In this document: positions 9,961 through 55,452 of the stretch, in pieces
How positions within the stretch are numbered: the stretch's first letter is position 1
Layout: each line of letters opens with the position of its first letter
Virus record (IMG/VR): IMGVR_UViG_3300029982_000015
Reading direction: 5' to 3' (one strand)
Source: a virus
Lineage: Duplodnaviria > Heunggongvirae > Uroviricota > Caudoviricetes
Length of the DNA stretch: 64,000 nt
Program-made: the position numbers and the translations under genes
The notes under the pieces: generated by a model
Database searches by the model: none
What the model saw: the letters and a program-made list of their open reading frames with translations, nothing else
What the model was told of the DNA's origin: nothing

Positions 9961-9991
9961 CTAGCCAAACCCGGTATAGGATCGGTATACT
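9961..9991 (+). promoter_or_regulatory. reiterated phage promoter
   Basis: CTAGCCAAACCCGGTATAGGATCGGTATACT. Confidence 0.5.
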
Positions 9992-10029
9992 GGAAACAGC
10001 AGCGAAACACGTCTTGAAAGGACAACCGC

Positions 10030-10572
10030 ATGAGCACCACACCCGCTATTGGAACCCCTGACATCGACCTCGATGATATGATTTTTGTGTTTGGCAGCAA
10101 CGAACTCGGTCGCCATGGCGGTGGAGCAGCAAAGGCTGCAATGTCACATGGAGCCCGGTACGGACAGGGCTTCGGTCTGCAAGGAAAGAGCTTCGCCATC
10201 CCCACCTGTGCCAAGCCTACCAATGAGCCTGACTCCACCATCACCCCGGACATGCTCCGTTACTACATCTATACCTTCATTCTCTTCGCGAAGATGAACC
10301 CCCAACTGACCTTCCAAGTGACTCGTGTCGGCTGCGGCCTTGCTGGCTGGGCGGACGGCGTTGTCGCTCCCCTCTTCACCGAGGCACCGGCAAACTGTCA
10401 GTTTGATGGCGCATGGGAGCCCCTGTTGCCCGGTCGCAAGTATTGGGGCTCATTCGGCGGCATGGTCATCCAATCCCCTGCATTTCAAGCGGCCACGGAT
10501 GTTGTAAAGGGTAGCGTAACCATCGACGCCGAGGCCGATAAGGTCGGCACCGTGAAGCAGTTGATTGGGTAA
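10030..10572 (+). CDS. macrodomain-fold protein (possible ADP-ribose binding/hydrolase)
   Basis: FVFGSNELGRHGGGAAKAA resembles the macro motif VNAANxxLxGGGGVDGAI; GLQGKSFAIPT resembles the macro GxCxTGxAxIT block; ~180 aa. Confidence 0.4.
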   Translation: MSTTPAIGTPDIDLDDMIFVFGSNELGRHGGGAAKAAMSHGARYGQGFGLQGKSFAIPTCAKPTNEPDSTITPDMLRYYIYTFILFAKMNPQLTFQVTRVGCGLAGWADGVVAPLFTEAPANCQFDGAWEPLLPGRKYWGSFGGMVIQSPAFQAATDVVKGSVTIDAEADKVGTVKQLIG

Positions 10573-10574
10573 GC

Positions 10575-11009
10575 ATGAACCGCACCCTGTTCGAAGAAAA
10601 TGTCTATCTGTCGCTCGTTGACGAGGGGGCTACACTCTTCGAACAGGGTAATCATCTCGCGGCTCACAAGTGTTTCTTGAAAGCCTTCCAGATGCACCCG
10701 GAATCACCCATCACTTTGTTCAACCTCGGTCGGTCTCTGGAGGAGTTGAGGGACATCAGGTCGATTGATTTCTATGAGGCAGCAGTCTCGATGGGGAGCG
10801 TTAACGCCTCCTACCAGCTTGCCACTATTTATAGTCAAAACTCATCCCCCGGATACAAAGAAGCTACGATTCGACACCTGAACCTTTATCTGAATAACAC
10901 CCGTGATACCGATGAGTGCCTCCAATGGGCAAAACAACGGCTCAACGAACTCGCTCCAGCACCAAGCAAGCCAGTATTGGTCTGGAGCAAAGGTAAAAGA
11001 GTAGCATAA
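10575..11009 (+). CDS. Sel1/TPR-like repeat protein
   Basis: Two ~36-aa repeats with the A-x-Y-x-L-A pattern (FLKAFQMHPE..., YQLATIYSQN...). Confidence 0.4.
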   Translation: MNRTLFEENVYLSLVDEGATLFEQGNHLAAHKCFLKAFQMHPESPITLFNLGRSLEELRDIRSIDFYEAAVSMGSVNASYQLATIYSQNSSPGYKEATIRHLNLYLNNTRDTDECLQWAKQRLNELAPAPSKPVLVWSKGKRVA

Positions 11010-11025
11010 AATTTTTCTGAAAAAA

Positions 11026-11056
11026 CTAACTAAAACCAACTCCGGTTCGGTATACT
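11026..11056 (+). promoter_or_regulatory. reiterated phage promoter; leaderless
   Basis: CTAACTAAAACC...CGGTATACT; ATG 11063 is 6 nt after the -10 box. Confidence 0.55.
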
Positions 11057-11062
11057 GTGGGT

Positions 11063-11452
11063 ATGGGCAAGAAGGCCAAGACGAAGTTCCCCACTAAGGC
11101 GCAGTTGAATGCGCTGAATATCCACAACGGCCACAACCTCGCTGACCTCACCAAAGACAAGCTATTCATAAGCTTCACCCCAGCCAGTACAGGCCGAGGC
11201 GGTCGGTCGGCTCACTTCCGCGTCTCCCACATCGGGTACCAGTCCGACCCCACTGCCCATTTTTTGGATTATGGATGTAAAACATTCACGGTGTGGGGTG
11301 GTAAGGCTGGTCGGGAGAAAGTTTTGGTCGATGTCATCGCATGGACAAACGCAAAGTATGGTGAACGGGAGTGGGTGAAAGACCCCTTCGGCTCCTATCA
11401 GGATGCACAGGTGATTGCCCTTGCTTGGGAGAAAGTGGAGGCGGCAAAGTGA
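11063..11452 (+). CDS. hypothetical protein
   Basis: ATG 11063 (MGKKAKTKF) placed by promoter geometry; the track start at 11057 is GTG. Confidence 0.5.
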   Translation: MGKKAKTKFPTKAQLNALNIHNGHNLADLTKDKLFISFTPASTGRGGRSAHFRVSHIGYQSDPTAHFLDYGCKTFTVWGGKAGREKVLVDVIAWTNAKYGEREWVKDPFGSYQDAQVIALAWEKVEAAK

Positions 11453-12264
11453 TTAAGGCCGAGTTACTAACCGAGACGAATGAACTCCACTTCCAGCGTA
11501 TGTTGTTGTCGGCGACCTATGGCTTTCAAGAGAAGCATAACGGCCATCGGCTGATTATCTGCAAGCAGGATGGGCAACTCCGCATGTTCAATCGTGAAGG
11601 CGATCCCTCCAGCAAGGCTCTCCACCCCCGCATCAAGACTGCCCTTCTATCACACCGGCTCAGCATGTTTGTAATCGACGGTGAATTGGTCGGCGGAACC
11701 TTCTATATCTTTGACGCTCTGGTGCTCGGGGATGAAGCTATCAACAACGACGCATATGAGTATCGCGAAGCTCGGTACCACGCTGAATTCGACAATATCT
11801 CAAGTCAAATCAGTGTAGTCCCGACCGCACGGACGGCGGAAGAGAAGCGGCTCCTGTGGGACGCAGTGCTGGCATCGCGTGGCGAGGGCATCGTCTCCAA
11901 GAACATGACCGTAAAATATACCCAAGGCATGGCGGGGGCTCACTGGAAGCTGAAATTTTTGAAGTCGGCAGAAGCTGTGGTTATAGGCCCTAGTCCAGAG
12001 GGAAAAGACAGCGTTGAGATTGGCATGTGGGACTCAAACGGTAGAATGCACCGCATCTCCGGCCTCTCGCTCCGCAATAAATACCGGGTCGCACCCGGCA
12101 CTGTTTTGGAGGTTCGTTTCCTTTATGCTACGAAAGAACTTCACATCGTTCAGCCGGTACTTGTTCGTGTACGCACCGATAAACGCGCTGCGGACTGTAA
12201 GTTAACCCAACTTGTCCCTTACATCAACAAAAATTGGGTAAAAAGCGAACTATCCCATGTTTAA
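11449..12264 (+). CDS. minimal ATP-dependent DNA ligase
   Basis: Motif I EKHNGHR (KxNGxR), motif III FVIDGELV, motif IV EGIVSK, motif V WKLK; GTG start overlaps the upstream stop (GTGA); ATG 11501 is an alternative. Confidence 0.7.
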   Translation: MIKAELLTETNELHFQRMLLSATYGFQEKHNGHRLIICKQDGQLRMFNREGDPSSKALHPRIKTALLSHRLSMFVIDGELVGGTFYIFDALVLGDEAINNDAYEYREARYHAEFDNISSQISVVPTARTAEEKRLLWDAVLASRGEGIVSKNMTVKYTQGMAGAHWKLKFLKSAEAVVIGPSPEGKDSVEIGMWDSNGRMHRISGLSLRNKYRVAPGTVLEVRFLYATKELHIVQPVLVRVRTDKRAADCKLTQLVPYINKNWVKSELSHV

Positions 12265-12308
12265 GCCAATTTCACCTTCACTCCGGCCAACCCGAAAGGA
12301 CTGAGAGC

Positions 12309-12497
12309 ATGACACCTTTGTTCAAGGGGGTTATCGCGGTGTTGACGTTCTTCATCGCCTCTGTCTTTTTGTTTATCGCGTGGCTCAACCTTGCCATCGC
12401 TAACACATTCGGTGGAGGCCACCTTCTTTTCGCTGCTCTCCTGCTGATTGCTGTATTGCTCATCGTGCGGGGTGTGAAGATTATCAGGACAATATGA
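12309..12497 (+). CDS. small membrane protein
   Basis: Two TM helices (VIAVLTFFIASVFLFIAWL; LLFAALLLIAVLLIV). Confidence 0.4.
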   Translation: MTPLFKGVIAVLTFFIASVFLFIAWLNLAIANTFGGGHLLFAALLLIAVLLIVRGVKIIRTI

Positions 12498-13193: not shown

Positions 13194-13415
13194 ATGAAAA
13201 TCGCAATTGGACAAATCAACAACACGGTCGGAGACTTCTACGATAACGTGGAGATGATTAAGAACCAAGCCATCGAAGCCACGGCTCATGGGGCTGTCGC
13301 CATTGTATTTCCGGAATTGGCTGTGTGTGGCTACCCCGTTCGCGACCTTCATTTGGAGGGGTATCCAAATCATCAAACGCACCGACAACTTCAGTATGGA
13401 GTAGAGGAGTGTTGA
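13194..13415 (+). pseudogene. N-terminal fragment of a CN-hydrolase / glutamine-dependent NAD+ synthetase (NadE-like)
   Basis: MKIAIGQINNTVGDFYDNVEMIKNQAIEATAHGAVAIVFPELAVCGYP matches the NadE/nitrilase N-terminus (MKIALAQLNPTVGD...LVVFPELALTGYP) but stops after 73 aa. Confidence 0.45.
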
Positions 13416-28190: not shown

Positions 28191-29696
28191 ATGGCTACTG
28201 CAACGGATGTGAGGATACTCGAAGCTAAGATGTTTGTCGCGGTGAATACCGCCGACAACAACAACAAATTTTGGAAGTATGAGCGCCTGTCTGCCCCCGT
28301 CACCGAGACCAACAACAAGAACAACTCCGAGACAGGTGACACTCGCATCACATGGGGTCGCGTAGGTGCGGCCAAGCCTGACCAGCAACTTATCATGTGG
28401 GATGTGACCACCATCGCTGGCAAGGTAGCCGACAAGACCGATACCAACAAAAAGGAAGTCATTAGCCGCCTCTCTTCGGGGCAAGGTCTGGACGGGCTGT
28501 CTCGCAAGGGCAAGCGTGACGACTACTACACTGAAGTTAAGACCATCGGTAACTCCACTCAGTCGTCACCGACGACCGCCATCCAAGTGGGACAGAAGCT
28601 GGCGAACGACCAAGTCCGCAAGCTGGCCGTCGCTGAGATTGCCGGTGGGTGCCAAATCACCGCCGCTCTCGTGAAAAAGCTGGCCGAAACCAACCGACAT
28701 GAACTCGTCGCTGCCACGTCCAAGGACAACAAGGGCGTAGACGGTGGTGGCATGGACATTGACCTTGAGACCGGCATGGTGAAGACCCCCCTCGGCGTGC
28801 TCACGCTCGATGCCATCAAGGAAGGTCGTGTGATTCTTGACCGGATGCTTCCCTTTGTCCAGCGTGCCGACACCGACTCCAAGTCATACATTACCTTGTT
28901 CGACCAATACCTTCGCAACATCCCCCAGTTCATCGGGTACAAGCGTGGGGCGCATGTAGACTTCATCAACATCGCCGCTCAGAACTCACTGCTTGACCAG
29001 TTGGAGACTTCGGTTGACCTTGCATTGCAACGCATGAAGGACGCTGAGGAAGCTGCCAAGGCACCGGGCACAAAGGCACCTGAAGCTGTCAAGCAGCAAA
29101 GCTTCTTCGAGTGCAAGCTACGGCTGCTGGATGAGGCCATTGAGAAGGCCATTTGGGAGCGCATCAGGAAGTCCTTCTTCGCGACCGTGAACTACGGCCA
29201 CACGTCTTCCAGTCTCAAGCCGGTGCGGATGTACGAAGTTACCATCCCGCACATGGTTCAAGCGTTCGATGCAGACGGTAAGAAGGTTGGTAACGTGCGT
29301 GAACTGTGGCACGGTACCCGCGTGTTCAACATCCTGTCTATCCTCAAGCGCGGCTTTGTCCTGCCGGGGGCGTTAACTTCCGCTCAGATTTGCGGTGCCA
29401 TGTTCGACAACGGCGTATACTTCTCAGACCAGTCCACCAAGAGCCTGAACTACTCACAGGGCTATTGGGACGGCGGCAGCAAGGACAACAACTGCTACAT
29501 GTTCCGTGCGGATGTTGCCATGGGTAAGCCTTACATCCCGACCGGACCTGATAACCGTGCAGCATCCTACTGCAAGAGGAATGGATTTGACTCCTGCCAC
29601 GCAGTCGCCAATCGCTCAGGTGTTCGCAACGACGAGCAGATTGTCTACCGCACGTCGCAGACCAACATCCGCTACCTCATCGAGTTCAACAAGTAA
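28191..29696 (+). CDS. poly(ADP-ribose) polymerase (WGR domain + PARP catalytic domain)
   Basis: WGR motif KFWKYE...TWGRVG. Catalytic LWHGTRVFNILSILKRGF (= PARP1 LWHGSRTTNFAGILSQGL), GVYFSDQSTKSLNYSQG (= GIYFADMVSKSANY), YMFRADVAMGKPY, and RNDEQIVYRTSQTNIRYLIEF (= [20 protein letters not shown]). H, Y and E triad residues are all present. Confidence 0.85.
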   Translation: MATATDVRILEAKMFVAVNTADNNNKFWKYERLSAPVTETNNKNNSETGDTRITWGRVGAAKPDQQLIMWDVTTIAGKVADKTDTNKKEVISRLSSGQGLDGLSRKGKRDDYYTEVKTIGNSTQSSPTTAIQVGQKLANDQVRKLAVAEIAGGCQITAALVKKLAETNRHELVAATSKDNKGVDGGGMDIDLETGMVKTPLGVLTLDAIKEGRVILDRMLPFVQRADTDSKSYITLFDQYLRNIPQFIGYKRGAHVDFINIAAQNSLLDQLETSVDLALQRMKDAEEAAKAPGTKAPEAVKQQSFFECKLRLLDEAIEKAIWERIRKSFFATVNYGHTSSSLKPVRMYEVTIPHMVQAFDADGKKVGNVRELWHGTRVFNILSILKRGFVLPGALTSAQICGAMFDNGVYFSDQSTKSLNYSQGYWDGGSKDNNCYMFRADVAMGKPYIPTGPDNRAASYCKRNGFDSCHAVANRSGVRNDEQIVYRTSQTNIRYLIEFNK

Positions 29697-30967: not shown

Positions 30968-31175
30968 GTCGTGATTATGAATATGAACTCGCACAGATGA
31001 AACAACGAGGGGCATCCCTTCGTCGGTTTCTAGCTGGTGGGAACGCCATCAGCGGCTTGATGCTCATCGCCCTCGCGGCGGTGGCACCCAGCTTTACTTT
31101 GCAGAATCGGCTGGTCTTTGGTTTTCTCGGCCTTTGCTGCCTCCTAATCATGCTCTTCGCTCTTCGGGTGAAATC

Positions 31176-31721
31176 ATGAGCCGAGGCTGGCGGGGCATGT
31201 GCGTAGTCGCGGAGTTCGCACCGGAAGATGTGTTACCTCTCCGGGGCAACCATGAGGTTATTTTCTATGCCGGAGACTTCCCCTTCAGTGTCCACATGGA
31301 CAGCCTACGCTACGCTACCTTCGCCAAGTCGCTGGTATGCTGCTCCTGCGGCCTTGTAGGCTCTGTGATGCGTCTGGAGTATAGCTACCACCAGCAAGGT
31401 CATGTTCGACCACACTTCAATCTCTACGCCCTCAATCCGGACAATGGCACCTATGTTCTGATGACCAAAGACCACATCATTCCCGTCTCCAAAGGAGGCA
31501 AGGATTTGGAGAGCAACCTGCAAACGATGTGCTCACCCTGCAATTTGAAAAAAGGAGATAAATTCCATGCCACAAATGAAGATAGAAAAGGAACCGGGCT
31601 CAACACCAGACCCCACAGTCACAAAGAAGGGGATTCTGGAACTCAGAATGACACCTCGCGGTTTCAGCCGTATCGAGTTCACCGACAGGTACGGGATTCA
31701 GTGCTCGTTACAAGAGAGTAG
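31176..31721 (+). CDS. HNH endonuclease
   Basis: DHIIPVSKGGKDLESNLQTMCSPCNLKKGDK; ATGA overlap with the upstream stop. Confidence 0.6.
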   Translation: MSRGWRGMCVVAEFAPEDVLPLRGNHEVIFYAGDFPFSVHMDSLRYATFAKSLVCCSCGLVGSVMRLEYSYHQQGHVRPHFNLYALNPDNGTYVLMTKDHIIPVSKGGKDLESNLQTMCSPCNLKKGDKFHATNEDRKGTGLNTRPHSHKEGDSGTQNDTSRFQPYRVHRQVRDSVLVTRE

Positions 31722-40742: not shown

Positions 40743-43313
40743 ATGAATTTCTCAGAAGTAAAAGCACACAGTATCGACGGGGTGTTCTACCTGACGATGA
40801 GCACCCACCCCGAACTTGCCAAGAAGGGCCGTCCTTTGGCACTCGTCAAATCTGGAAGTATGACGTTCTCCGACAATCAAGTAGCATTCAAGGGAGAGTC
40901 TTATCCCTTGGGGCTCACTCTCGCTGAGAACACCCCTTTAACCATCATTTTCACCAACCACAACAGCCGAGTGTTCAACATCGAACGCGGTGTGCAAACC
41001 AAGAAGCTTGAGAACGGTGACCTTTTCTTCCAAGGCGAGAACCGCAACCATGGTAACAAGACCAAGGAAGAAATAGCAGCCAAAGGGACCGGCTACCTCA
41101 CCCTCAAGAACCGGCTGTTCTACCATCATCGTGGTGTGGAGACCTCCGGTGCAGTTTTACCCAAGTGGGCCGCAGATAAGAAGACCAACTGGCGCTTGGT
41201 ATGGAATATTCTCGCCTTGTTACTCCAATGGACTTTGCAGAAGAGCGAGGATGTTGGAGACACAACAACAAACTGGACACCACACATCAAAAGTGTTGCC
41301 ATGCTTCTAACCGACGATAGGGAGGTGTCTGCATACCGTCGCACGACGTTGTCAGCCGAATCCACGGCCATCATCGAGCGCATCCGCAAAGTGATTGTGG
41401 ACTCCATGAACGCTCACTATGCTACTCGTGGACGCGAGGCTAAGTTACCTCTCCCGAAAAATCTTCGCGACAACGCCAAATACCCAGCCAACTTTTCTGA
41501 CCTTCGCTACTTCATATACCGCCTCGACAAGTATGAGAAGGAAGAAAAGGTTAAGGTTCTCGTTTGTGGGGTGGCTGAGAGCGACCCGGAGACCCTTCTC
41601 GCTAATTATCTGAAAACAGAACTGGGTAAATTGAAACGCCACAAAGAGCCCCTCAAAGCACTCAAGGCGCTTTTCACCAATATAGAGGAAACCAACTGGG
41701 CCGATGGCATGGGGGAGGTCTGGATGAATGGTGCAAAGCCATGGAGCGGTAACCTCTTCAATTACATCGGCAAGATGCTGGCTGTCCCCCCCGCAGAAAT
41801 GGGTGAAATATCCACTCGCTTTCAAGCTGTGTTGAAACAGCGTGAATCGAAGAATAGTCCTTACGACAAAGGCTGGCCGAAACACATCCGCATTGATGAG
41901 GACACATGGCAGGTCTCCTACGACGTACGTGGAAAGAAAACCCTCCGGGAAGTGCTGGATAACAAGGTTCCGCATATCCAGTTCACCGCCCCGCTGGATT
42001 CAATCAACACTGGAAAAGCATTTCGTCACACCGTAACGGCTGTTGGCGACGACTTTGTGGTCACACCTGAGTTCAAGCCTATGACACCGGGCTCCTGCGC
42101 TGCCAAGCGGTCATTGCACGGCGTTTCACTCACCGATGGCAAGGGCACCGACCCCTTCAAGTTGGCCGTCCTAGTTCACCGTGATGATGTTGACCTGAAC
42201 GCTAAGGTGAAAAAGGTCATTGTGTCCTTCAAGACAGAGAAGCGCAAAGTGGTTAAATACGCCGACCAAAATGGTCGAAACTCTGGTCTTGCGGCACCAG
42301 CGACCAAGCAGGTGCCCCAGTGCTACCTCAACTTCTGCCTTGCAGAAGTCAAGACTAACGAGAAGTACGATACGCGGGGCACCGGGTCGGCAAAGCTCAC
42401 CCTCGGATGGAAGCTGGCGAAAGACGACCAGTTGAAAATCGTTACCGAGTCTCTTCCGACCGGGCAGACAAACGACTACTACTTGCCTCTCGGCGAAGAG
42501 TGGAAGACCGAAGGACTCTTCGCTGAAGGATGTGACAGCACGAAGAAGGGCAACGTTTGGTCGCGCAAGTCGGGGTATACACTGGCATTCCGCACGTTAT
42601 ACGGATGGCCGGGTGAGGAAGCCATTAAAAATGCCCAGAAGGCAGAACTTCAGGCACACTTCCGCACAAATACTTTGACGTACAATTGGCTTAAGACTAC
42701 CCTCTTGTCACTACCGGAGCAGCTTGACCTTCTGCTCAACGCGGCCAAGGATGAGGGGTACAAGCTTATGACTGAGGAGCAGCGGAACATTGTTGACGCG
42801 GCAGGTTGGCGTATGGTTCGCCAGTCTGGCATGGTTCGTTACATCAACGAACTCCGCATTGGTGCCGGGACGCTAACTACAACCTACAACACTAACCCAA
42901 GTCGTCAGAGCGAGAAGTCCAAACCGCTCGGCTCTAACCCCGAACTCCTTCGTCTCTGGCTTCGCTGGCTTGAGTTCAACGACCGCCTTCGCACTGTAGA
43001 GCGTATGGTGCGTGAGAACCTGTTGGGACGCCGTAAAGCTTACTACTATGTTCTCGCACACCGCATCTGCGACCATGCGTCAACCATCTCTTACAAGAAA
43101 TTGAACCTCAAGGACGCTTCAGAGAAAGAGACCCGCGCCAAGAAGAAGGACAAGGGCGACAAAATGGCTTCCGATGCTTCGCAGAAGTACCGCTCGTGGG
43201 CATCACTGGCCGAATTTACAACCATCCTCAAGCACGTCGCATTCAAGCGTGGCGTGACGGTCGAGGAGGTTGTTGAAGCCCTTGTTGACAAAGCTCTGGC
43301 CGCGTCAGCTTAA
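40743..43313 (+). CDS. putative nuclease-dead Cas12/TnpB-derived CRISPR-associated protein (C-terminally truncated RuvC)
   Basis: 856 aa, immediately 5' of the CRISPR array. AKLTLGWKLAKDDQ aligns with TnpB RuvC-I vGIDLGLKTLAtlSDG, with the catalytic D replaced by T. TISYKKLNLKDAS aligns with RuvC-II vIAlEDLNVkGMt, with E-D replaced by K-K. MASDASQKYRSWASLAEFTTILKHVAFKRGVTVEEV aligns with TnpB iSDAGWGEFRRqLEYKAeWYGreVVVV. The protein ends before the TSQ/zinc-finger/RuvC-III segment; no CxxC pairs. Confidence 0.45.
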   Translation: MNFSEVKAHSIDGVFYLTMSTHPELAKKGRPLALVKSGSMTFSDNQVAFKGESYPLGLTLAENTPLTIIFTNHNSRVFNIERGVQTKKLENGDLFFQGENRNHGNKTKEEIAAKGTGYLTLKNRLFYHHRGVETSGAVLPKWAADKKTNWRLVWNILALLLQWTLQKSEDVGDTTTNWTPHIKSVAMLLTDDREVSAYRRTTLSAESTAIIERIRKVIVDSMNAHYATRGREAKLPLPKNLRDNAKYPANFSDLRYFIYRLDKYEKEEKVKVLVCGVAESDPETLLANYLKTELGKLKRHKEPLKALKALFTNIEETNWADGMGEVWMNGAKPWSGNLFNYIGKMLAVPPAEMGEISTRFQAVLKQRESKNSPYDKGWPKHIRIDEDTWQVSYDVRGKKTLREVLDNKVPHIQFTAPLDSINTGKAFRHTVTAVGDDFVVTPEFKPMTPGSCAAKRSLHGVSLTDGKGTDPFKLAVLVHRDDVDLNAKVKKVIVSFKTEKRKVVKYADQNGRNSGLAAPATKQVPQCYLNFCLAEVKTNEKYDTRGTGSAKLTLGWKLAKDDQLKIVTESLPTGQTNDYYLPLGEEWKTEGLFAEGCDSTKKGNVWSRKSGYTLAFRTLYGWPGEEAIKNAQKAELQAHFRTNTLTYNWLKTTLLSLPEQLDLLLNAAKDEGYKLMTEEQRNIVDAAGWRMVRQSGMVRYINELRIGAGTLTTTYNTNPSRQSEKSKPLGSNPELLRLWLRWLEFNDRLRTVERMVRENLLGRRKAYYYVLAHRICDHASTISYKKLNLKDASEKETRAKKKDKGDKMASDASQKYRSWASLAEFTTILKHVAFKRGVTVEEVVEALVDKALAASA

Positions 43314-51764: not shown

Positions 51765-52808
51765 TTACCAGCGGTAGATGGTTAGTTGACGAGCATAAAC
51801 AGTGATGGGAAGTCCTGTGCTTTGAGCCGGGTCGATCTGGAAATTTACCACCAAAGCACCCATTGCCCATTTCAAAGCCTGCTCCTCGAAGGTGGTCGTG
51901 TTGATTTCGTTGACCACGCCGTCGAATGCCACCCAGTGATAGGTCACACTCCCCAAATCATCACGAGACGTGTAAATCTGAACGTGATGCCATGTGTTGG
52001 CTGTCCAGTTCTTCACGTTGCACGGAAGCTTTGAGGGCACCCACTTCGGTGCCAACGCTCCGCCATTGTTGGAAACGTAGGAATAATCCCACGTGCTAGA
52101 CCATTTAGAACACTGGAACGCATAGATTACAGTGTTTCCGTTAGTTGTCACCTGATTCATGTCCAGTTCAAGGTTGCCGACCAGTGATGGTGTCGGAACC
52201 TGTATCCACACGTCATAGATGAAATTGTGGCTGGAAGTGTCCTTGGCAAAGTTAATGGAGCAACGCTCTCCTCCATAATTTGAGTAGCTAGTGACCTCAT
52301 ACTTCTGCACATCGGTGTACCCACCCTCCGTAACCGGGTAGGTCATGACTGCTGTGGATGAGCCACTGGTGCCTAAGTCGTGCTGACACTTCCATAACGA
52401 GTTTCCAGTAAGATTACCCGAAGAGATTGCATAAGACGGGATAAGAGAAACCGGAGGCTTGACCACGATGAGGTTGATGTCGTTAACGCATACGGTACCC
52501 TTGCCCCACGCTTTGATACGCAGTGTATGGCTTCCCGCACTTATAGTTGCTTCTTCGTTCAGAGCTTGACCAGCTTTGGCCATCACGGTCGGCAATGAAT
52601 CGAATGAGTAGCCCATCGACACAACTGGCTTACCATTGCACGAGGTTGCAGTGGCTGCGATGGGGAATGTGGTCTGCACTGTGGCAGCGTTCTGTGGAGT
52701 GGATACTGAAACTGCCATTGTAGAAAGAGAGGATAGAAAAAGAGATACAACTGTAAACAACTTTAAGAACCGCATTTTTACTGCTCCTTGGGTCTTTCTA
52801 TCGTTCAC
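51765..52808 (-). CDS. secreted beta-rich protein (signal peptide; possibly carbohydrate-binding)
   Basis: MRFLKLFTVVSLFLSSLSTMAVSV signal peptide (true start perhaps at 52775); W/Y/N/S/T-rich. Confidence 0.5.
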   Translation of the reverse strand: MNDRKTQGAVKMRFLKLFTVVSLFLSSLSTMAVSVSTPQNAATVQTTFPIAATATSCNGKPVVSMGYSFDSLPTVMAKAGQALNEEATISAGSHTLRIKAWGKGTVCVNDINLIVVKPPVSLIPSYAISSGNLTGNSLWKCQHDLGTSGSSTAVMTYPVTEGGYTDVQKYEVTSYSNYGGERCSINFAKDTSSHNFIYDVWIQVPTPSLVGNLELDMNQVTTNGNTVIYAFQCSKWSSTWDYSYVSNNGGALAPKWVPSKLPCNVKNWTANTWHHVQIYTSRDDLGSVTYHWVAFDGVVNEINTTTFEEQALKWAMGALVVNFQIDPAQSTGLPITVYARQLTIYRW

Positions 52809-52830
52809 ATATGAGTTCCGTATTTAGATG

Positions 52831-53268
52831 TTATAGTGGTTGTAGCCACAGCTTTATAGGGTGGTTGTAGCCACAGCTTTGAGTGTTGCCTGATTTTAGC
52901 GAACCCGTCCGGACAGTGGTGTACCGGCCACATACACAGCGGCACTTCCATTGCTTCTGGCTCCGGTAATGCTCAGCTTCTGACTCGACCGTGAGATGCC
53001 CAAAGGTCTGGCCGATGAGTTCTCGTTGAGCCCACCGCTGTTTACCAGCTTCGCTGATGAGACACCCACAGCTACGTATGTTTCCACTTTTGAGGGCAGA
53101 GGTTGTGACTCTAGATGTGTTGCCACACTCACACTGACAGTTCCAAAGCTTCTTACCCCTCCGCAAGGGTGCCTTGGATACGACCGTTAGTCGGTTGAAT
53201 ACTTGTCCGGGTGTAAGTTCTTGACTGTCCCAGTATCTCTTGTTACCGGCGTGCCATGCAGCCTTCAT
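52831..53268 (-). CDS. protein with two tandem WxCxCxCG...SCG zinc-ribbon repeats
   Basis: FNRLTVVSKA...WNCQCECGNTSRVTTSALKSGNIRSCGC, then FGHLTVESEA...WKCRCVCGRYTTVRTGSLKSGNTQSCGY. Same module as in 18605..19336. Start taken at an internal Met to avoid overlapping 53345..54085. Confidence 0.4.
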   Translation of the reverse strand: MKAAWHAGNKRYWDSQELTPGQVFNRLTVVSKAPLRRGKKLWNCQCECGNTSRVTTSALKSGNIRSCGCLISEAGKQRWAQRELIGQTFGHLTVESEAEHYRSQKQWKCRCVCGRYTTVRTGSLKSGNTQSCGYNHPIKLWLQPL

Positions 53269-53344
53269 TGCATCGGTGAACAGGCCTGTATAACCTTCTC
53301 CACCCTTGCAGATGTTGTAGCCAACCTCGGTATCTTTTCGTTCA

Positions 53345-54085
53345 TCAGCGGTTCGCACGCGACACAAACATGTGGCCGAAGTTCGGGTCTTCTATGTCCA
53401 TACGGAACTGGCCGAGGATGCCGGGATCACTGCGATAAAGGTGACCCATCTTCTGCGCTTTGCGTTTAGAGAAGCCGACGCCGACCGCGCTCACCTTATC
53501 AATTAGACTATGCACCCAAGCTGCTGTAGCTGCTTCCTTGCCGTCCTTGGAGTCCATGAGGGCCTTGGATGCCCGTGACATCGCTCGACGCACGTCAGGT
53601 CGGTGTAGGCCGAAATGGAGGGCTACCTGTTGAAAGTTTCGGCACCTGACATACTCCATAATGACTTTAGATAGGGGAGCTTTATCCAGTGAATTTTCCA
53701 ACCCCGCTTTGTCTAAAACCTCATGCAGTAGTTCTTCGGTGGGCTCTCCGCCGACCAGCATAAACGTCCCCAAAGTTCTGACTGCCATCCTGATACGGAA
53801 GCTGCATACTGTTTGAGTTGACTTATGTATGATGGCTAGGGTGTTTTGCGTCTTGCTAAGAAGGTAGTAACTGAGCAATAACTCCTGATCCTCTCTTTTT
53901 AAGAATCTAAGTGTCTTTAAAAAACGGTCAAAGTTCTCTCCAATGAAACTCAAAATATCATCTTCGGCCAAGTCGGCCTGAGTTTCAAGACTAATAGTTG
54001 TAGCCCCTTCTAGCTGTTCGTCCTCGTCCAGAAGCATTGCCCGAATCGAAGTGATGCTTTCAAAATACGGTGTGTTTTCGCTCAT
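53345..54085 (-). CDS. sigma-factor-like protein (region-4-like HTH)
   Basis: LKREDQELLLSYYLLSKTQNTLAIIHKSTQTVCSFRIRMAVRTL resembles sigma70 region 4 (ReReVL.LRYgl...Tl.EIa...g.s.erVRQi..rAl.kL). Confidence 0.35.
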   Translation of the reverse strand: MSENTPYFESITSIRAMLLDEDEQLEGATTISLETQADLAEDDILSFIGENFDRFLKTLRFLKREDQELLLSYYLLSKTQNTLAIIHKSTQTVCSFRIRMAVRTLGTFMLVGGEPTEELLHEVLDKAGLENSLDKAPLSKVIMEYVRCRNFQQVALHFGLHRPDVRRAMSRASKALMDSKDGKEAATAAWVHSLIDKVSAVGVGFSKRKAQKMGHLYRSDPGILGQFRMDIEDPNFGHMFVSRANR

Positions 54086-54250
54086 TTTCCCATTCTTATT
54101 GACAAATTTTAGATTTGTGGTAATCTACGTATAAGGCAGCGTGTGTCTTGAACCGCCTCGTACTGTACCTTAATACTGAGGTAAGAGTACCTTTGAGCAA
54201 TAAAAAAGCGGCCTTGTGGGCCGCTTTTTTCAGTTGTACCGTAGTGTGGT

Positions 54251-55261
54251 TTAGCTGTGCTTCAGAGCGAGGATGCTTACACCGATGTTGTAGCGACCCG
54301 GATTGACAAACCCCGGCTGGTAACCCCCTGTAGGGAGCAACGCTGGTCCGCCAACCGCAGTGCCTGTATCTACACCGCTGCTCACGTTAGCATGAGTGAA
54401 GGCTGCGGTAAAGGTTGAACCAGTGGAACCTGTTACTGTCACAGTCTGGCCGTTCAGAAAGGTGTTCGTGGTAAGACCTGCAAGCAGGACTGTAGCCCCT
54501 GTCTGGAGGGTGTTAGTTCCAGTGACTGTCAACACATTTGAAGTGATAGCAATATCAGCAATGGTGACCGTCTGAGAAGCAATGGAGCCACCAGTAAGGA
54601 ACCCGCTGACGTGGTAGTCATTCGCAGTGCCGTTGATTCGACCGGAGTCAAGAAGGGTGAAACCAGAGGGAACAGAAATGGAACCTGTCTTACGAGCGTG
54701 CCCAACAAGGAAAACCAAATCGCCAGTTGCAGTAGTAGTGATGGAGGGGGCTACGGCAGGGTTAGCATTAGACTCTTGACTGTTATGTCCGTCGAGAGGG
54801 CTGGTGGAGATGCCAGAGAACTCATACACCTGAGCATTGAGCCCATGATTAAAGGTCGGTCTTCCTGTAACATCAGCAACAGTGACGTTGAAATACTGAT
54901 TACCGCCAGCGACGTTTGCCGCATAGTAAAGATAGGTAGTCGAGTAGTAACCAAGGTCGCCGTCAAAATTGATGAGGCTGTCAATGATCGAGAATGTGTT
55001 GCCAAGGTTATCCTTAACAACTGGAGGGGCGGTTACAAGAGTTGAACCGTCGATACGATCTGCCCCAGCAGCCATCTGAGTAACGCTGAAAGGATCGGTA
55101 ACTTTAGCAGCCTCAATTGCGATGACGAGGCAGTTACCTGCCGTTGCCGTGGTAGGTAATGCCACCTGAAGTGCATTGGTAGCATAGACAACCGAGTTTT
55201 TGCCTTTTTGAACCAGTGTTGGAATTGCCATAGTAGTCTCCTTACAGTGCCCAAACGGCAC
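54251..55261 (-). CDS. tail-fibre/virion-surface-like G/T/S/N-rich beta protein
   Basis: 336 aa, low-complexity T/G/S/V composition typical of phage fibre proteins. Confidence 0.45.
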   Translation of the reverse strand: MPFGHCKETTMAIPTLVQKGKNSVVYATNALQVALPTTATAGNCLVIAIEAAKVTDPFSVTQMAAGADRIDGSTLVTAPPVVKDNLGNTFSIIDSLINFDGDLGYYSTTYLYYAANVAGGNQYFNVTVADVTGRPTFNHGLNAQVYEFSGISTSPLDGHNSQESNANPAVAPSITTTATGDLVFLVGHARKTGSISVPSGFTLLDSGRINGTANDYHVSGFLTGGSIASQTVTIADIAITSNVLTVTGTNTLQTGATVLLAGLTTNTFLNGQTVTVTGSTGSTFTAAFTHANVSSGVDTGTAVGGPALLPTGGYQPGFVNPGRYNIGVSILALKHS

Positions 55262-55452
55262 AGTCTCTATTTAGGTTTATGAAAGTTCAAATAGTGTATG
55301 GCCGATTGTAAATTATTGATGCTTTCCTGCCTTAAGGCTACACTTGCCAAAATTATTAGGTGGCGACCCATGTTATTGATTCGCCGTCTGACCCGCCACC
55401 CTTAATACCTAAGCCGAACACGAGTCCGACTACATCAGTTGACCGGCGAAAC

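Follow-up and report, generated by a model that had tools for sequence, protein, structure and literature searches.

A WGR-domain PARP with PARP1-3-like domain order in a Caudoviricetes genome fragment that also encodes an MVP homolog

Which kind of PARP does a tailed phage encode when its genome also carries a homolog of MVP, and do the two gene products belong together? The question is raised by a 64,000-nucleotide stretch of the IMG/VR virus record IMGVR_UViG_3300029982_000015 (Caudoviricetes), here called the window. An open reading frame (ORF) at positions 28191-29696 of this stretch had been interpreted from its letters as a WGR-domain PARP with an intact H-Y-E catalytic triad. This sequence-only reading offered two settings for the gene: a vault-like module of MVP plus PARP, or a eukaryote-like DNA-end response module formed with Ku and ligase genes. 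Our analysis finds the PARP observation to be correct, well above chance, and the gene to encode an unremarkable member of a family that has been catalogued before. Its product is probably a minimal PARP of the PARP1-3 or bacterial type, competent for catalysis and encoded by a stand-alone accessory gene of an uncultured huge phage.

Domain architecture and active site of the window PARP

The ORF (28191..29696, plus strand) starts with ATG and encodes 501 aa, exactly as had been proposed. Pfam, a family profile and Foldseek divide the product into a WGR domain, a linker, a helical regulatory domain (PARP_reg or HD) and an ART catalytic domain. In a single-sequence Pfam search, the catalytic family PF00644 matched at 75.5 bits (cutoff 26.7; aa 323-499), whereas PF02877 (PARP_reg; 22.0 bits, cutoff 26.8, aa 192-289) and PF05406 (WGR; 15.1 bits, cutoff 22, aa 14-82) remained sub-threshold; stronger tests were therefore needed for both of these domains. 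Such tests drew on an alignment (A1) of 35 PARP homologs with 40-82% identity to the query, which formed the basis of the family profile and of an AlphaFold2 model. Positions 12-432 of the profile align in one stretch with the WGR-HD-CAT region of human PARP1 (4dqy_C, E=3.5e-30), pairing WGRVG with WGRVG, the HD PLGxL segments with each other, LWHGT with LWHGS (H862), GLYFSD with GIYFAD (Y896) and NDEQIVY with YNEYIVY (E988). The model (mean predicted local distance difference test score, pLDDT, 79) finds its best Foldseek matches in the PDB among DNA-break-bound chains of PARP2 and PARP1 (7aeo, 6x0l, 7s6m and 4dqy), with E-values of about 1e-23 to 1e-21 over about 540 aligned columns. In addition, a full-length homolog from another viral contig (IMGVR_UViG_3300028840_004648, locus L023), which scores 434 bits against the hidden Markov model (HMM) of A1, reaches or exceeds the Pfam cutoff for each of the three domains (WGR 48.8, PARP_reg 26.8 and PARP 106 bits). 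Profile, fold and homolog thus confirm the two domains that single-sequence Pfam scores had left below cutoff.

All parts of the protein are encoded on the plus strand. The WGR domain (aa 1 to about 115; 28191..28535), to which the sub-threshold Pfam match and the profile alignment point, is modeled with a pLDDT of about 90. Its W55-G56-R57 motif (28353-28361) aligns with WGRVG of PARP1, and G56 and R57 are invariant or nearly so in A1. Insertions at about aa 40-52 and 84-112 are specific to the clade of the window PARP. A low-confidence linker follows (aa 116-143; 28536..28619), with weak conservation in A1 and a pLDDT below 50 at aa 122-143; weaker confidence was also seen in the loops at aa 296-302 and 395-402. 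The HD (aa ~144-300; 28620..29090) is all-helical in the model and was recovered by Pfam (below cutoff), the profile and phmmer, the last of which matched aa 190-423 to the HD and CAT regions of PARP1/2 at an E-value of about 1e-13. Its PLGxL motif, present as TPLGVLT, is invariant in the family.

The ART domain (aa ~305-501; 29103..29693), likewise identified by Pfam, profile and phmmer and modeled with a pLDDT of 84-95, carries the catalytic residues H374 (in LWHGT; 29310-12), Y410 (GVYFSD; 29418-20) and E482 (NDEQIVY; 29634-36), together with the donor-site motif STKSLNY, which includes K417 and Y421. H374 and Y410 are invariant among the 35 relatives and E482 is conserved in at least 90%, the lone exception being a frameshifted C-terminus; the STKSLNY motif is invariant in the family. 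Single-sequence PDB matches of this domain are the catalytic domains of PARP4, PARP1, PARP2 and PARP3, and in the top match, that of PARP4 (8swy, E=2e-15), the same three residues fall on the PARP4 triad. A special affinity for PARP4 was considered and rejected, as the family profile gives 78.3 bits for the CAT-only PARP1 structure 8u4w and 76.9 bits for 8swy. Moreover, the WGR domain, linker, HD and ART domain take up all 501 aa, leaving no room for MINT, vWA, VIT or BRCT, and none of these four domains gave a Pfam match in the ORF even at E<=1. The 28191-29696 product is a true WGR/HD/PARP-catalytic protein of PARP1-3-like domain order; the sequence-only reading was right on this point, as it was in separating the protein from PARP4.

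By analogy with PARP1-3 and with the bacterial enzymes described below, activity on suitable targets would be expected to depend on breaks. The WGR domain would bind a nucleic-acid break (a nick or an end), and this binding would destabilize or unfold the autoinhibitory HD, opening the NAD+ site. The H-Y-E site could then move ADP-ribose from NAD+ to the PARP itself and to nearby targets.

Relatives and genome setting

Two bacterial enzymes with WGR-reg-cat organization have been characterized, HaPARP from Herpetosiphon aurantiacus and CdPARP from C. difficile CD160. Both are proteins of 47-52 kDa that need activated DNA and make poly(ADP-ribose) (PAR) (PMC5966428; PMC4245714), and clinical PARP inhibitors block both (PMC5966428); CdPARP is sensitive to rucaparib. 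The window PARP, at about 56 kDa, shares their WGR - PARP_reg - PARP_cat order and H-Y-E triad. It differs from them in being encoded by a phage, in carrying insertions in and after the WGR domain, in its sub-cutoff Pfam scores for WGR and PARP_reg, and in being known from sequence alone.

Phage homologs of PARP have been listed since 2014, among them those of Aeromonas phage Aeh1 and Cellulophaga phage phi4:1 (PMC4245714). A "PART (PARP)" family is among the most frequent viral ARTs (PMC9503650), and phage PARPs were proposed in a survey of jumbo phages to sense DNA damage in the manner of PARP1 (PMC11662467). More than 1000 homologs of the window PARP were found in a large protein collection, most of them 420-500 aa long; many lie on contigs of 200-700 kb, many are annotated as PARP, and many have precomputed PF05406 and PF02877 matches. 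Full-length homologs occur in the jumbo phages CM1/RAS14 of Stenotrophomonas, XacN1/Xoo-sp13 of Xanthomonas and FBKp34 of Klebsiella, several of them annotated as PARP; alignments to these proteins and to that of phi4:1 cover 77-98% of the length, with 28-37% identity. The window PARP matches phrog_23333 (151 bits), the PHROG to which these phage proteins belong as well. In contrast to the jumbo-phage isolates, the phage of the window also encodes MVP, and it has no close relative in the phage record collection, where megablast of the 26-32 kb region gave no match. The nearest relatives of the protein are metagenomic (80% identity), and several samples together yielded 19 contigs with exactly this protein.

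Human PARP2, PARP3 and the PARP1 core provide the best full-length structural matches, with the WGR, HD and triad columns aligned. Identity to these proteins is only about 17-20%, however, and the window PARP lacks zinc fingers, a BRCT domain and an N-terminal tail and has a shortened loop. Since the WGR-HD-CAT architecture is known in bacterial PARPs and the phage family has been catalogued, the window PARP adds one member to a known family. We know of no prokaryotic or phage WGR-PARP with an established biological role. A compact enzyme of 501 aa with all regulatory parts would be a handy model for break-activated PARP allostery.

The window itself is gene-dense and mostly one-stranded, with many small ORFs that have no matches. 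Its MVP homolog recurs with 100% identity on a contig of 247,905 bp. An rIIB-like protein, a phage-type Ku, HNH endonucleases and TnpB, together with MVP relatives on viral contigs and huge phages, strongly argue that the window is part of an uncultured huge phage genome, of at least 248 kb. A TnpB gene (OrfB_IS605/Cas12f-like TNB; 25692-26900) lies 1.3 kb upstream of the PARP gene and an HNH endonuclease gene (31134-31721) lies 1.4 kb downstream; the PARP region is therefore flanked by mobile elements. Predicted promoters and terminators around the gene were no more numerous than in shuffled background. The ORFs flanking the PARP gene (a 75-aa ORF, a 109-aa Zn-ribbon ORF and the upstream ORFs) have counterparts only in other copies of this phage, and neighbors differ across at least 51 related loci. 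The gene is thus best described as a stand-alone accessory gene of a fluid, early-type region. It lies among nucleic-acid end-processing genes (Ku, a LigD-like ligase, an RNA ligase and a CCA-adding enzyme) and forms a conserved operon neither with any of these nor with MVP.

Several observations weigh against the interpretation as a competent PARP1-3-type phage enzyme. Taken alone, its WGR and PARP_reg segments score below the Pfam curated cutoffs, and the clade-specific WGR insertions may affect function. In the profile alignment, the loop matching residues ~940-985 of PARP1 falls about 30 residues short of its PARP1 counterpart. PARP3 and PARP4, which are H-Y-E enzymes, are mono-transferases, so poly-ADP-ribosylation by the window PARP is not assured; its product may be chains or single ADP-ribose units. 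Scans of the window ORFs brought up no canonical eraser (Pfam Macro, PARG or ARH). A virion structural gene was not found in the window either, and the term phage is therefore inferred from accessory genes and relatives. To our knowledge, no phage member of the family has been characterized biochemically.

Possible roles and the linkage to MVP

What the enzyme might do for the phage was approached through the genes that accompany it. Neighboring ORFs were clustered over 54 PARP loci, and an HMM derived from the Macro cluster then served to search them for Macro genes. In 20 loci (within L093-L133), mostly of more distant subfamilies, the gene directly downstream of PARP encodes a protein of about 230 aa with a C-terminal AbrB/MazE (SpoVT) DNA-binding domain, a candidate for a conserved partner or regulator that the window lacks. 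Other recurrent neighbors are a T4 Rnl1-type RNA ligase and an isochorismatase-like protein (weak Pfam match), each in 7 loci, and Macro (6-8 loci). These minority associations leave some room for a role in host takeover, counter-defense or RNA-end metabolism, in which the PARP would modify host proteins or DNA/RNA ends, possibly upon host DNA/RNA cleavage, alongside RNA-repair and ADP-ribose-processing genes. Phage ARTs commonly target host machinery (PMC9503650), and an RNA ligase and a PNK-like protein accompany PARP in the LR756500 block described below; in the window, an Rnl2-type ligase and a CCA-adding enzyme lie within 8 kb. Nevertheless, each association is clade-specific and concerns at most 40% of loci, none of the four recurrent neighbors flanks the window PARP, and the proposed substrates have no supporting information. 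We regard such a role as possible, though some way short of probable.

A second, somewhat more doubtful role is a DNA-end response, in which the PARP would sense breaks or termini of the phage genome and work with Ku and the LigD-like ligase to protect, circularize or repair DNA, for example after host nuclease attack. Both genes named in the sequence-only reading are indeed present: a Ku homolog (1767..2738, plus strand; Pfam Ku 104.7 bits, phrog_4873 125 bits) and an ATP-dependent DNA ligase with a LigD-like nucleotidyltransferase domain (11371..12264, plus strand; TIGR02779 72 bits, under the equivalog cutoff). Together with the PARP gene they fall within 27 kb on one strand. The idea is plausible biochemically, as WGR-HD-CAT is the architecture of the break-activated enzymes PARP1-3, HaPARP and CdPARP (PMC5966428), and a DNA-damage sensor is what the jumbo-phage survey proposed (PMC11662467). 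Comparative genomics, however, gives it no support. HMMs were used to cross-scan 131 related loci, each extended by +/-10 kb, comprising 51 PARP loci and 80 IMG/VR MVP loci (80 of 231 contigs). In none of them did a Ku or ligase homolog lie within 10 kb of PARP or MVP, and both were rejected as conserved PARP neighbors; the suggested module thus keeps its genes and loses their association. Dozens of unrelated ORFs also separate the genes in the window, bacterial Ku/LigD non-homologous end joining runs without PARP, and a PAR-binding module was not found on the repair proteins.

The MVP homolog that the sequence-only reading had noted is real (4721..7276, plus strand, 851 aa; MVP_shoulder 82 bits, Vault_3 40 bits) and lies 20.9 kb upstream of the PARP gene on the same strand. 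Relatives are numerous, with 4456 protein matches and 231 IMG/VR viral contigs, the latter found with a second alignment (A2), as a single-sequence query matched nothing there; they also occur in the uncultured huge phages LR756500 (462 kb) and LR756501/3 (735 kb). As a separate observation, loci L134 and L138 each carry a gene for a UvrD-type helicase 2-4 kb downstream of MVP, and L134 also has NAMPT and Nudix genes near MVP.

Could the two proteins form a vault-like module, with an MVP shell, the PARP as a dedicated enzymatic partner comparable to PARP4, and the macro-fold protein of the window as reader or eraser? Several arrangements make the idea attractive. Both genes occur in one genome in the window, in its closest relative, on two JGI contigs, in LR756500 and at L023. 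At L023 (5429-17398), an RNase_T exonuclease and one ORF are followed by a WGR-PARP (7277-8590), three small unannotated ORFs and MVP (9968-12433), with a PD-(D/E)XK nuclease farther downstream; the pair is co-directional and 1.4 kb apart. In LR756500.1 (L002; 18932-30871, minus strand), a co-directional 12-kb block holds PARP, R2K ATP-grasp, AAA, Rnl2 RNA ligase, HD+AAA_33 (PNK-like) and DFP genes, MVP, two ORFs and a Pfam Macro gene; its PARP has 424 aa and no Pfam-detectable WGR. Furthermore, a Macro gene accompanies MVP within 10 kb at about 14 of the 80 MVP loci, and NAD+/ADP-ribose is bound by the shoulder of eukaryotic vaults (preprint 10.64898/2026.05.01.722283). Apart from this, the window PARP resembles PARP4 (vPARP) in its catalytic domain, in its H-Y-E triad and in having an MVP homolog in the same genome.

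The wider comparison argues against such a module. In the cross-scan, the 51 PARP loci yielded no MVP within 10 kb, and the 80 MVP loci yielded PARP at that distance in two cases (L023 and L043), counts to be read with the limits that a 20-kb gap like that of the window would escape a +/-10 kb test and that the PARP pattern search was incomplete, having missed L023. Two genes placed at random in a genome of 250-450 kb fall within 10 kb of each other with a chance of roughly 5-8%; 2/80 is therefore no excess over chance, unless very few MVP phages carry PARP. The close cases are, moreover, ascertained through their proximity. The two pairs that were found free of this bias, on Ga0604933_0000011 (453,890 bp; opposite strands) and Ga0598456_000002 (248,991 bp), are about 140 kb apart in each case. 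In the closest relative, GROS21 scaffold_595 (PARP 80% and MVP 76% identical), order and strand are those of the window, with a spacing of about 28 kb and with other genes beside PARP.

Within the phage record collection, MVP was found only in LR756500 and LR756501/3, PARP in 16-17 records, and both only in LR756500. MVP was not found there in the isolated PARP phages, nor was PARP found in the 735-kb MVP phage LR756501/3 with two different PARP queries. A 2023 preprint on the first viral MVPs, the only paper on such proteins that was found, likewise searched its two gut MVP phages for vPARP and TEP1 and found neither (10.1101/2023.11.10.566534). Phage genomes with both MVP and PARP appear to be previously unreported. 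In the window, no tRNA or Rfam family was found, including vault, Y or tRNA-like RNAs, and TROVE had no match among about 60 scanned ORFs of these 64 kb (of a genome of at least 248 kb). Finally, the window PARP differs from PARP4 in lacking BRCT, VIT, vWA and MINT, for which its 501 aa leave no space, and in having a WGR domain, which PARP4 does not contain; nor is its MVP linkage conserved.

A tight MVP-PARP operon is thus rejected on the 131 loci, although the +/-10 kb data are compatible with a loose, clade-restricted association. The vault-like module loses support through the distance between the genes, their near absence from each other's surroundings and the missing PARP4 domains; we consider it unlikely. 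What survives, weakly supported, is a low-probability idea that draws on the two adjacent MVP-PARP arrangements in other huge phages, which have only PARP and MVP in common. The LR756500 block and the PARP, three ORFs and MVP at L023 suggest a variant that we hold to be rather improbable, namely that some huge phages combine a vault-like MVP compartment with an ADP-ribosylation and RNA-end-repair toolkit (PARP of WGR or other type, macrodomain, RNA ligase and PNK), of which the window phage would have a dispersed version (MVP, the macro-fold A1S_2505 protein, RNA ligase and PARP). If true, the eukaryotic MVP-PARP4 partnership would have a counterpart among prokaryotic viruses, which might even be its evolutionary source. 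The adjacent pairs of these two lineages also offer constructs with which to ask whether an MVP-PARP interaction predates eukaryotes.

Least likely of all, and by a wide measure improbable, is that the window PARP is a degenerate or non-transferase protein (a pseudo-enzyme, NAD+ binder or NADase), as its WGR insertions, its loop shorter than that of PARP1 and its low-confidence loops at aa 296-302 and 395-402 could suggest, because H, Y, E and STKSLNY are conserved in relatives down to 40% identity and the recurrence of the identical protein across samples, on 19 contigs, fits a gene that circulates intact.

Macro-fold protein, NadE remnant and other window genes

The plus-strand ORF at 10030..10572 had been put forward as a macrodomain-fold protein and as a possible ADP-ribose reader or eraser matching the PARP. 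The fold is supported by the structure model, which has the macrodomain three-layer alpha/beta/alpha arrangement. The profile match was not: no PF01661 match was found at E<=1, a phage-Macro HMM gave E=3.9, and hhalign against the phage Macro alignment reached a probability of 10.6%, aligning only the loop-1 motif, which is not significant. Among the scanned window ORFs, neither Pfam nor the phage-Macro HMM revealed a canonical Macro. Similarity to macro loops 1 and 2 is seen in the segments FVFGSNExGxHGGGAA and IGCGLAGW, the latter with Ala after IGCGL in place of the catalytic Asp of TARG1 and DarG. The protein belongs to the A1S_2505 family (phrog_2072), which appears, on the modeled fold, to be an unrecognized macrodomain clade closest to DarG and TARG1, and which may serve to reverse ADP-ribosylation, such as that of DarT-modified DNA. 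As a dedicated eraser for the window PARP, the protein is a poor candidate: the family is widespread in phages, its homologs were found near PARP or MVP in none of 142 related loci, and the catalytic Asp is replaced.

A truncated NadE had also been noted at 13194..13415 (plus strand) and taken as a link to NAD+ metabolism. It is indeed a fragment of NadE, a 73-aa N-terminal stub of the glutaminase (CN_hydrolase, 26 bits; positions 5-67 of 546 in PRK13981). The ORF runs only a little way past the FPEL motif, the ORFs that follow are unrelated, and neither a complete glutaminase domain (E-K-C) nor a synthetase domain is present. The link to NAD+ metabolism accordingly does not hold for a remnant that lacks synthetase capacity; the stub suggests a decayed ancestral NAD+ synthetase gene.

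Other window genes encode an rIIB-like protein (phrog_609, 225 bits), HNH endonucleases, TnpB, a ClpX-like ATPase, a CCA-adding enzyme, a helicase-methyltransferase and a GmrSD_N protein. Two ORFs of about 860 aa each (40743-43313 and 56857-59460) and a five-gene minus-strand cluster (51765-56244) had no Pfam or PHROG match. At 19318..20358 (plus strand), 7.8 kb upstream of the PARP gene, an N-terminal HNH nuclease (33 bits) is fused to an Rnl2-type RNA ligase (RNA_ligase PF09414, 109.8 bits), an unusual architecture. Lastly, a giant ORF of more than 1325 aa (60019-63996), which runs to the end of the window, contains an Xre_MbcA_ParS_C domain at aa 938-986. This is the toxin-binding domain of antitoxins against RES/ParT-type NAD-using or ADP-ribosylating toxins, and the ORF is possibly another NAD/ADP-ribose-related element of the phage.

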